Origin: a virus | Taxonomy: Duplodnaviria; Caudoviricetes | IMG/VR virus record: IMGVR_UViG_3300037067_018877 | Coordinates: 5,958-69,957 of that record | Length of the DNA stretch: 64,000 nucleotides | Direction: 5' to 3' (one strand) | Shown here: piece by piece, positions 8,172 through 9,059 of the stretch | Layout: each line of letters opens with the position of its first letter | How positions within the stretch are numbered: the stretch's first letter is position 1 | Translations under genes and position numbers: made by a program | The notes under the pieces: generated by a model | What the model saw: the letters and a program-made list of their open reading frames with translations, nothing else | What the model was told of the DNA's origin: nothing | Databases searched by the model: none

Positions 8172-9059
8172 TCATTCGGCCGGCTCCTCGTGATGGACGT
8201 GGCCGAGGACCGCCTCGTGATACGGTTTCGTGATCGGCAGTCCTTCCAGCTCTCGCCAGGCTATCCAGAGGTCCTGCAGGAAGACCTTGACCATGTACCG
8301 CATGGCCATATTGTGGCGATGGCCTTTGCTCTTGTCCTTGTGCTTCTCATGATTTTCCAGGCGGTGTTTGTAGTCGTCGTAGACCCGGCGGTACTTGCAG
8401 CCGTCAGGGGACTGCTTCAGGAAGCACGAAGCCAGGACGCCGACCAGTTTGGTCTTGAGGAACGGGTTGAACGTGATGCCCTTTTTCACCTGGTCCTTGC
8501 CGTCCTTGTCTTTGTACGACCGCTCGACGAGGTGCTCGGCGTATCGGCCGCGGCCCCGGCCGTCCGCAGCCACGTCCAGGCCCGCCAGGGCCCAGAACTG
8601 GCTGATCCGTTCGGCCTTGCGAATGTCGAACTCCGAGAGGATCACCGCGCTCATCAGCGGACCGCAGCCCTTGACGCCCTCCAGGAAGGCCGACCACAAG
8701 GGATGTTGCTGGACGATCTTGGCGATGACCTTGGCCATGTGCTCCTCGTGCGCCAGTTGCGTGACGTACAGCTCGACGAACACGAGCATTCCGGCGTCGG
8801 TGATGATCTCATAGCTCTCAAAATGGACCTTGAGGTACTTGTGTGCCTGGTTCAGGACGAAGGCGTCCGTGATCCTCTTGTACTCGGCCCGGGCCCTGTC
8901 CAGGTAGTCCTGGGCATCGGGCTCCAACTGCTCCTCGGATGTCCCCGGCGACTGACCCAGCCGGGCCTTGATCTCGGCGCAGATCCGGTTGCCCGTCTGC
9001 ACCCGCTCGTGCTGCACGTCGTACAGAGTCCGCACGAGGCTCTTTCGGATCTCGAACAT
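8172..9059 (-). CDS. TIGR-associated Nop-domain protein, TasA-like (IS110-related, no RuvC/HNH)
   Basis: coiled-coil LYDVQHERVQTGNR; HPLWSAFLEGVKGCGPLMSAVILSEFDI...FWALAGL; FNPFLKTKL; HRHNMAMRYMVKVFLQDLW match the IS110 C-terminal/Nop fold; flanked by 36-nt dual-repeat arrays; SD GAAAGGA. Confidence 0.85.
   Translation of the reverse strand: MFEIRKSLVRTLYDVQHERVQTGNRICAEIKARLGQSPGTSEEQLEPDAQDYLDRARAEYKRITDAFVLNQAHKYLKVHFESYEIITDAGMLVFVELYVTQLAHEEHMAKVIAKIVQQHPLWSAFLEGVKGCGPLMSAVILSEFDIRKAERISQFWALAGLDVAADGRGRGRYAEHLVERSYKDKDGKDQVKKGITFNPFLKTKLVGVLASCFLKQSPDGCKYRRVYDDYKHRLENHEKHKDKSKGHRHNMAMRYMVKVFLQDLWIAWRELEGLPITKPYHEAVLGHVHHEEPAE

Follow-up and report, generated by a model that had tools for sequence, protein, structure and literature searches.

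A nuclease-free TasA protein between dual-repeat TIGR arrays in a complete 70-kb phage genome

Among the Tas effectors of TIGR (tandem interspaced guide RNA) systems, the commonest is TasA, a solo Nop form (Faure et al. 2025, PMC12045711). FpTasA of Flavonifractor plautii, which belongs to a system with dual-repeat arrays, binds 36-nt guide RNAs called tigRNAs (PMC12045711). MbTasA leaves its target DNA bound but uncut and represses transcription (Xu et al. 2026, bioRxiv 10.64898/2026.09.09.750476), and PlTasA, for which a ternary structure has been described, binds DNA without cleavage (Guan et al. 2026, bioRxiv 10.64898/2026.08.11.744272). Here we describe the tasA gene of a Caudoviricetes phage, IMG/VR virus record IMGVR_UViG_3300037067_018877, and the two TIGR arrays that flank it. 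Coordinates are those of a 64-kb window (64,000 nucleotides, positions 5,958 to 69,957 of the record); the full record is 69,957 bp long, is graded complete by CheckV and holds a single copy of tasA. We conclude that this gene belongs to a dual-repeat TIGR-Tas system of a complete 70-kb phage and that its product probably blocks target DNA by guided binding without cleavage. The gene and its arrays are laid out as follows:

8172..9059, minus strand: tasA, coding for a 295-aa coiled-coil and Nop-domain protein without a nuclease domain
9075..9191, minus strand: upstream TIGR array, 3 tigRNA units
7868..8163, minus strand: downstream TIGR array, 8 tigRNA units, including one of 35 nt

Upstream of the tasA ATG, the reading frame stays open for only 8 more codons (303 aa), and the N-terminus MFEIRKSLVR lines up with the N-termini of 39 homologues in an alignment. 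Since these homologues share the start position, the start codon of tasA is sound. The sole Pfam match of the protein was a sub-threshold hit to Transposase_20 (17.3 bits against a cut-off of 21.3, covering 40 residues), and phrog_4285, which PHROGs labels 'transposase', spans residues 7-294 (E=9e-34). A phmmer search against PDB sequences matched the TasR of a cryo-EM structure (9mty, E=1.8e-18) and SpTasH of a Salicola phage (E=4.9e-11). An AlphaFold2 model made with 40 homologues as input had a mean predicted local distance difference test (pLDDT) score of 85.5, and its predicted architecture is that of a Nop domain together with a coiled coil formed by helices 6-33 and 89-118. Foldseek ranked TasH and TasR first for this model, then IS621 and ISCro4, then Nop5, Nop56/58 and Prp31. 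Structural alignment of the model to these matches (VIA-align) gave the following correspondences:

model residues 1-289 with SpTasH residues 65-298, Z 19.1
model residues 3-278 with TaTasR residues 112-303, Z 18.6
model residues 1-272 with IS621 residues 126-314, Z 12.9

Z scores were about 13 for ISCro4/IS621 and about 7.5 for Nop5, and core identity to TaTasR and SpTasH was 26-30% over the aligned part. In the SpTasH, TaTasR and IS621 alignments, the match begins past the HNH, RuvC or DEDD domain of the partner, indicating that the start of TasA coincides with the end of these domains in its relatives. An N-terminal HNH or RuvC domain was found neither by Pfam, nor in the 8-codon extension of the frame, the homologue alignment or VIA-align. 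The view of the first-pass annotation, made from the sequence alone, that the protein opens directly at the coiled coil without a DEDD/RuvC region is thus borne out by Pfam, the limit of the frame and the VIA-align ranges, and tasA is supported as a predicted nuclease-free Tas protein, a solo coiled coil and Nop domain. Compared with TaTasR (9mty) and SpTasH (9w03, 9w04, 21kl), TasA has the same coiled-coil/Nop core and the same placement of the hairpin ahead of helix alpha-4, but it lacks the RuvC domain (about residues 1-111 of TasR) and the HNH domain (about residues 1-64 of TasH), so that DNA cleavage is not expected. The Nop-type RNA-binding fold and the coiled coil are also shared with IS621/ISCro4 and with archaeal/eukaryotic Nop5 and Nop56/58; relative to these IS110-family and Nop5/Nop56/58 proteins, TasA comes without DEDD/RuvC, transposon ends, a fibrillarin-binding N-terminal domain or K-turn/L7Ae logic.

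The two arrays together hold 11 tigRNA units, all on the tas strand. Read on that strand, each unit follows a 36-nt period composed of an edge repeat, AGCGTGCCA, the 9-nt spacer A, a loop repeat, AGAAACCCA, and the 9-nt spacer B. [quoted passage not shown] The downstream array opens 8 nt past the tasA stop codon and closes with the truncated edge AGCGTTTGT, 24 nt ahead of the GTG of a primase gene, so that truncated edge repeats stand at all four array ends. A search of the 64-kb window for the edge-N9-loop pattern with up to 3 mismatches returned 9 sites against 0.04 expected, all of them on the minus strand and distributed over both flanks of tasA. Tandem Repeats Finder gave no report for the arrays because the units are too diverged, and Rfam yielded no match in window 5000-14000.

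Both the edge and the loop repeat run AG...CCA, that is, from a box D start to a box C end. TaTasR repeats start with UG (box D), end with CCA (box C) and have an extra covarying edge pair (Faure et al. 2025, PMC12045711), and the box motifs may diverge yet stay matched between edge and loop (Faure 2025, PMC12045711). We looked at pairing in 1009 edges from about 79 related loci. Positions 2/7 were A-T in 426 edges, G-C in 330 and G-T in 196, with 57 non-pairs (94% paired), and positions 3/6 were C-G in 856, T-A in 65 and T-G in 44 (96% paired). The compensatory changes at 2/7 and 3/6 support two base pairs in the edge repeat. Like repeats in like orientation accompany tas in the same set of about 79 loci. 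Judged from their sequence, the two arrays of the phage are genuine TIGR arrays, predicted to be transcribed in the tas direction. A simple consensus scan of the minus strand revealed no promoter- or terminator-like site beside the arrays, suggesting that the arrays, tasA and the flanking helicase and primase genes are probably co-transcribed.

By published description, the FpTasA type is likewise a solo coiled-coil and Nop protein, and it has in common with the present locus the alternating edge and loop repeats, the two 9-nt spacers, the 36-nt period, arrays on both sides of tas, truncated edges at the array ends and a phage-encoded location. Here, however, box D is AG rather than UG, the arrays take up all of the space that separates the replication genes, no terminator is predicted, and spacers of 44% GC sit in a GC-rich (64%) phage. 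The locus is an ordinary dual-repeat TIGR-TasA, a type already known.

Two parts of the protein deserve separate description:

8193..8222, minus strand: candidate Tyr/His pre-tigRNA processing dyad in YHEAVLGHVH (Y280, H287, H289)
8478..8570, minus strand: codons of residues 164-194, a Gly/Arg loop and beta-hairpin ('insert') between the GLDV strand and the FNPFLKTK helix

SpTasH cleaves its own pre-tigRNA via Y289 and H296 (PMC13421893). The residues of this Tyr/His dyad for metal-independent pre-tigRNA cleavage, which lies in the C-terminal Nop loop, are present in TasA: in the phmmer alignment, Y280 corresponds to SpTasH Y289 and H287 to SpTasH H296. Across the family alignment, Y280 is invariant, H289 is conserved in at least 90% of sequences and H287 is variable. 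The dyad is typical of dual-repeat systems and missing from stem-loop ones (Xu et al., 10.64898/2026.09.09.750476), and its presence in TasA agrees with the dual-repeat type of the arrays at the locus.

Residues 164-194, AADGRGRGRYAEHLVERSYKDKDGKDQVKKG, include one His and no Cys, and no HNH motif was found in them. This is in line with the first-pass description of an insert of about 30 residues devoid of such a motif; the segment is in fact a loop and hairpin conserved in the family. Since the HNH domain is N-terminal in TasH, these residues were never a likely HNH site. Their conservation in the family is among the highest, G167, G169, R170, Y182 and G187 being invariant, and AlphaFold2 predicts a loop followed by a beta-hairpin (178-183/189-194) immediately ahead of the FNPFLKTK helix. 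In published Tas structures, a wedge in the form of a loop or a hairpin sits at that position and covers the DNA strand that is displaced (PMC12045711; bioRxiv 10.64898/2026.08.11.744272), and residues 164-194, mapped by position only, would be the equivalent of this wedge hairpin.

The nuclease-free MbTasA and PlTasA, which bind matched double-stranded DNA via two 9-bp heteroduplexes, provide the functional model that we adopt. The transcriptional repression by MbTasA is reversible (10.64898/2026.09.09.750476). These two proteins belong to, or were examined with, stem-loop systems, whereas the present locus has dual-repeat arrays and retains the dyad. By homology, TasA would act as a dimer that binds the array transcript and may cut the edge repeats via Y280 together with H287/H289, yielding 36-nt tigRNAs. 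Each tigRNA would then guide a TasA dimer to an 18-bp site with one spacer paired per strand, and the site would be unwound and held uncut, thereby blocking transcription or replication of the bound DNA.

Several points weigh against a guided block of this kind. MbTasA and PlTasA, on which the evidence was obtained, come from stem-loop systems or were examined with stem-loop arrays, and the evidence found for dual-repeat TasA proteins is limited to the binding of tigRNAs by FpTasA. Box D is AG, unlike the UG of TaTasR. The His conserved in the family is H289, two residues past the variable H287, making the assignment of the catalytic His uncertain. Unlike in the typical layout of Faure et al., the consensus scan predicted no rho-independent terminator after either array. 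Finally, no natural target emerged from the searches presented below, and the step from binding to a block of foreign DNA is one that we infer.

A word-indexed search returned 1954 homologues, nearly all of them 288-296 aa long, from marine, soil, landfill and metagenome-assembled genome sources. A search limited to longer proteins produced six forms, and none of the six has a Pfam nuclease domain on record. Three of these six longer homologues (P0121, P0122 and P0124; 672-879 aa) are interrupted by inteins (LAGLIDADG_3, Intein_splicing, Hint_2). Genomes in GTDB contain 23 copies at 32-52% identity in widely different phyla, one of which lies in a prophage within the complete Sporomusa aerivorans chromosome. 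DNA of the phage itself (window 7700-9400) was recovered in public sequencing runs from landfill metagenomes of several studies and from one groundwater metagenome; the runs listed for it included none of RNA.

To define the expected targets, we relied on the cleavage pattern reported by Faure et al. (2025, PMC12045711), in which a single cut falls within each of the paired halves and 3′ overhangs of 8 nt result. Such a pattern requires both DNA strands of the 18-bp site to be paired in their 3′ halves, from which we derived that the site, on one strand, reads spacer A and then spacer B in reverse complement. When the 11 spacer pairs were searched to 4 mismatches in four geometries against the 69,957-bp genome, no self-target with 2 or fewer mismatches was found, and the best self-matches had at least 3 mismatches in any geometry. 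From 79 loci we collected 687 distinct tigRNA targets, which, in a search of the genome and 0.84 Mb of related loci, produced 36 matches with up to 2 mismatches, compared to 32 for register-shifted and 40 for wrong-geometry controls. Exact scans of IMG/VR with the three units conserved between this phage and a sister variant (see below) gave 10, 1 and 6 matches, which is the chance level given 19 and 5 for wrong-geometry controls; the matches of unit d8 fall on a conserved ESNPFG coding motif of AT-rich marine phages. In the 6.5-Mb chromosome of Sporomusa aerivorans, 7 tigRNA targets of its own prophage had 3 matches, as did the controls, and the single match with 1 mismatch sits in the middle of an open reading frame (ORF).

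On the RNA strand, the spacers of the phage are 44% GC with 34.5% A, in a genome of 63.7% GC with 16% A. Across the family, the spacers of every locus are rich in A (35%) and poor in C (17%), whatever the composition of the genome. Such a bias may be imposed by demands on the guide RNA, or on the stability of its hybrids, and not by where the spacers come from. Foreign DNA (such as that of competing phages or plasmids) is the most likely target, or possibly the host; no self-match was found, spacers of 44% GC stand in a genome of 64% GC, and the arrays have largely turned over between variants.

This turnover could be followed in a sister variant found in landfill contigs (locus L082, to which L085 is identical). 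The tasA genes of the two phages are 98.6% identical at the nucleotide level, with 2 amino-acid changes, and the block from luxR to the helicase gene is 99.2% identical. Identity falls to 62.5% between the downstream arrays (window 7868-8163 compared to L082:5690-5990); upstream, an array of 3 units in this phage stands against one of 8 in the variant (window 9075-9191 compared to L082:6889-7217). Only 3 of the 11 units are unchanged (u2, d4 and d8); four spacers differ at 1-2 of their 9 positions, and the rest have been replaced. The variants share just one of the two spacers in two units. The landfill contigs carrying the sister variant display the same replacement joints inside the arrays. 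From the rapid change of the arrays, the conservation of the effector and the absence of a self-match, we infer that changing foreign targets fit better than fixed regulatory sites.

The same comparison was extended to 24 pairs of related, non-identical arrays drawn from 79 related loci (L002-L083) and the arrays of the window. The two spacers flanking a loop, which belong to one tigRNA, were retained together in 49 cases and separated in 42; for the two spacers flanking an edge, joint retention was seen 27 times and separation 86 times (odds ratio 3.7, Fisher p=1e-5, the pairs not being independent). The whole tigRNA unit would thus seem to be the preferred module of array gain and loss. The upstream array of the Sporomusa aerivorans prophage (L131:5300-6000) contains the near-duplicate units ATATTGCAA/AACTTTTTT and GTATTGCAA/AACTTTTTT, a pair that suggests duplication of units inside an array followed by divergence.

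The genes surrounding tasA and its arrays are encoded on the same strand:

9187..10557, minus strand: superfamily 2 (SF2; DEAD/ResIII) DNA helicase gene (ResIII/Helicase_C, phrog_16), the upstream neighbour
5858..7843, minus strand: gene for a primase (RepB/PriCT_1-like) fused to an AAA_25/DnaB-like helicase, the downstream neighbour
10554..11012, minus strand: LuxR/GerE-type helix-turn-helix gene, whose stop overlaps the helicase start and which heads the same-strand gene string
11600..11953, minus strand: free-standing HNH ORF (117 aa; Pfam HNH at 28.7 bits, above the cut-off)

Pfam, PHROGs and the repeat map confirm the earlier placement of tasA between an SF2 helicase gene, with its stop codon in the first edge repeat, and a primase-helicase gene. 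The HNH ORF is nested, in another frame, in an ORF for a C5 DNA-methyltransferase (11469-13166, minus strand), which has about 140 residues more than phrog_363 at the position of the HNH ORF; Rfam returned no known intron at this place. No link of the HNH ORF to tasA emerged.

The check proposed with the first-pass annotation, namely conservation of the gene order in related phages, came out negative. The order helicase-array-tas-array-primase is kept only in the near-identical sister variant (99% identical in TasA) and is absent at 84% identity and below. Within 6 kb of tas in 80 IMG/VR relatives, a homologue of the SF2 helicase was found once and a homologue of the primase twice. At 84% identity (L083), tas is followed by small ORFs and then by YqaJ and RecT; at 79% (L014), a gene for a RusA-like resolvase comes after tas; and at 77% (L002), tas lies between an SbcC-like gene and, farther downstream, a clamp-loader gene. 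The 120 immediately flanking proteins match 164 PHROG families, among which the frequent named ones are DNA polymerase, helicases, endonuclease, exonuclease, nucleotide kinase, ligase and HNH endonuclease. Further immediate neighbours in the family are primase, clamp loader, RusA and RecT/YqaJ. The family is habitually placed in the replication/recombination block without a fixed partner, and the position between helicase and primase genes reflects a replication-gene neighbourhood, not a conserved partnership. A terminase small subunit gene adjoins tas at one locus. An ORF of about 120 aa directly follows the TIGR array in a low-GC cluster (L004, L012, L016, L019, L021 and L022). Its tested representative, from L019, matches phrog_93 ('endonuclease'), and the representative of a second cluster of flanking genes matched other families; phrog_93 was rejected as a general partner, since in the one cluster tested (through L019) it is confined to related low-GC loci.

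These neighbourhoods bear directly on the alternative that TasA is a guide-RNA adaptor which recruits a separate effector (SF2 helicase, primase-helicase or the HNH protein encoded at 11600-11953) to unwind, nick or prime DNA at the site chosen by the guide. All three genes share a strand and are found within 4 kb, the first edge repeat overlaps the stop codon of the helicase gene, the equivalent beta-hairpin of SpTasH docks its HNH domain (10.64898/2026.08.11.744272), and helicase genes adjoin tas in a few other clades (SNF2-type in L033-L041, Dda-like in L076). We nevertheless consider recruitment very unlikely given the rarity of helicase and primase homologues near tas, the replacement of the neighbours at 84%, 79% and 77% identity, the great variety of flanking families and the published statement that TasA is without clear association to other proteins (Faure 2025, PMC12045711). 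The interpretation given in the first-pass annotation thereby divides: a nuclease-free binder of TasA type is upheld by the sequence, the fold, the arrays and the family, whereas recruitment of the helicases or of a free-standing HNH as partners is not. A related pair of ideas, which we regard as quite unlikely, is that cutting of the edge repeats severs the mRNA of the replication operon or that the 18-bp bubble opened by TasA serves as an RNA-chosen loading site for helicase or primase. The former comes to mind because the spaces separating the helicase, tasA and primase genes are taken up by the arrays within an apparently single transcript and because the helicase stop lies inside the first edge repeat; cuts in the operon mRNA could fall at or within that stop codon and just ahead of the primase gene. 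If true, such cutting would tie the maturation of the guides to the dosage of replication proteins. Apart from the way the genes are arranged in this phage and in its close variant, neither idea has positive support.

The location of the locus inside a replication operon would also suit a self-regulator, in which tigRNAs guide TasA to sites of the phage's own genome, such as promoters or an origin, and so time replication or expression. Reprogrammed TasA proteins can repress native genes (10.64898/2026.09.09.750476), and units u2, d4 and d8 are unchanged between the two phage variants. This explanation seems very improbable, however, as the genome offers no site with 2 or fewer mismatches in the correct or the three other geometries, the A-rich spacers typical of the family are unlike the 64% GC genome, and the majority of units differ between near-identical phages. 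Hardly credible is the alternative that tasA is a decayed IS110-family transposase gene and that the flanking repeats are remnants of a transposon without guides. The weak Transposase_20 match, the 'transposase' label of phrog_4285 and the structural proximity of IS621 and ISCro4 all point in that direction. Against it stand the missing DEDD/RuvC, the IS621 alignment beginning only at residue 126 of that protein, some 1950 homologues of equal short length and strongly conserved sequence, regular 36-nt arrays with covarying edge pairs in about 79 loci, and a far better match to TasR and TasH than to proteins of the IS110 family. Moreover, terminal inverted repeats, target-site duplications and multiple copies were not seen in the genome, where tasA is single. 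An identity as IS110-family transposase was rejected, neither DEDD/RuvC nor an above-threshold Transposase_20 match having been found.

Guided binding of target DNA by a nuclease-free TasA is thus the reading that we retain, and the locus adds one more well-formed example to the approximately 20,000 reported tas loci. The function guessed in the first-pass annotation restates what had been discussed in print, and experiments on other TasA proteins now lend it partial support. The modest value of the locus lies in a phage genome that is complete and has tasA flanked by two arrays, and in a near-identical sister variant, which makes the change of the arrays measurable against an effector gene of 98.6% identity. 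The joint retention of the two spacers of a tigRNA is relevant to the open problem of TIGR array growth.

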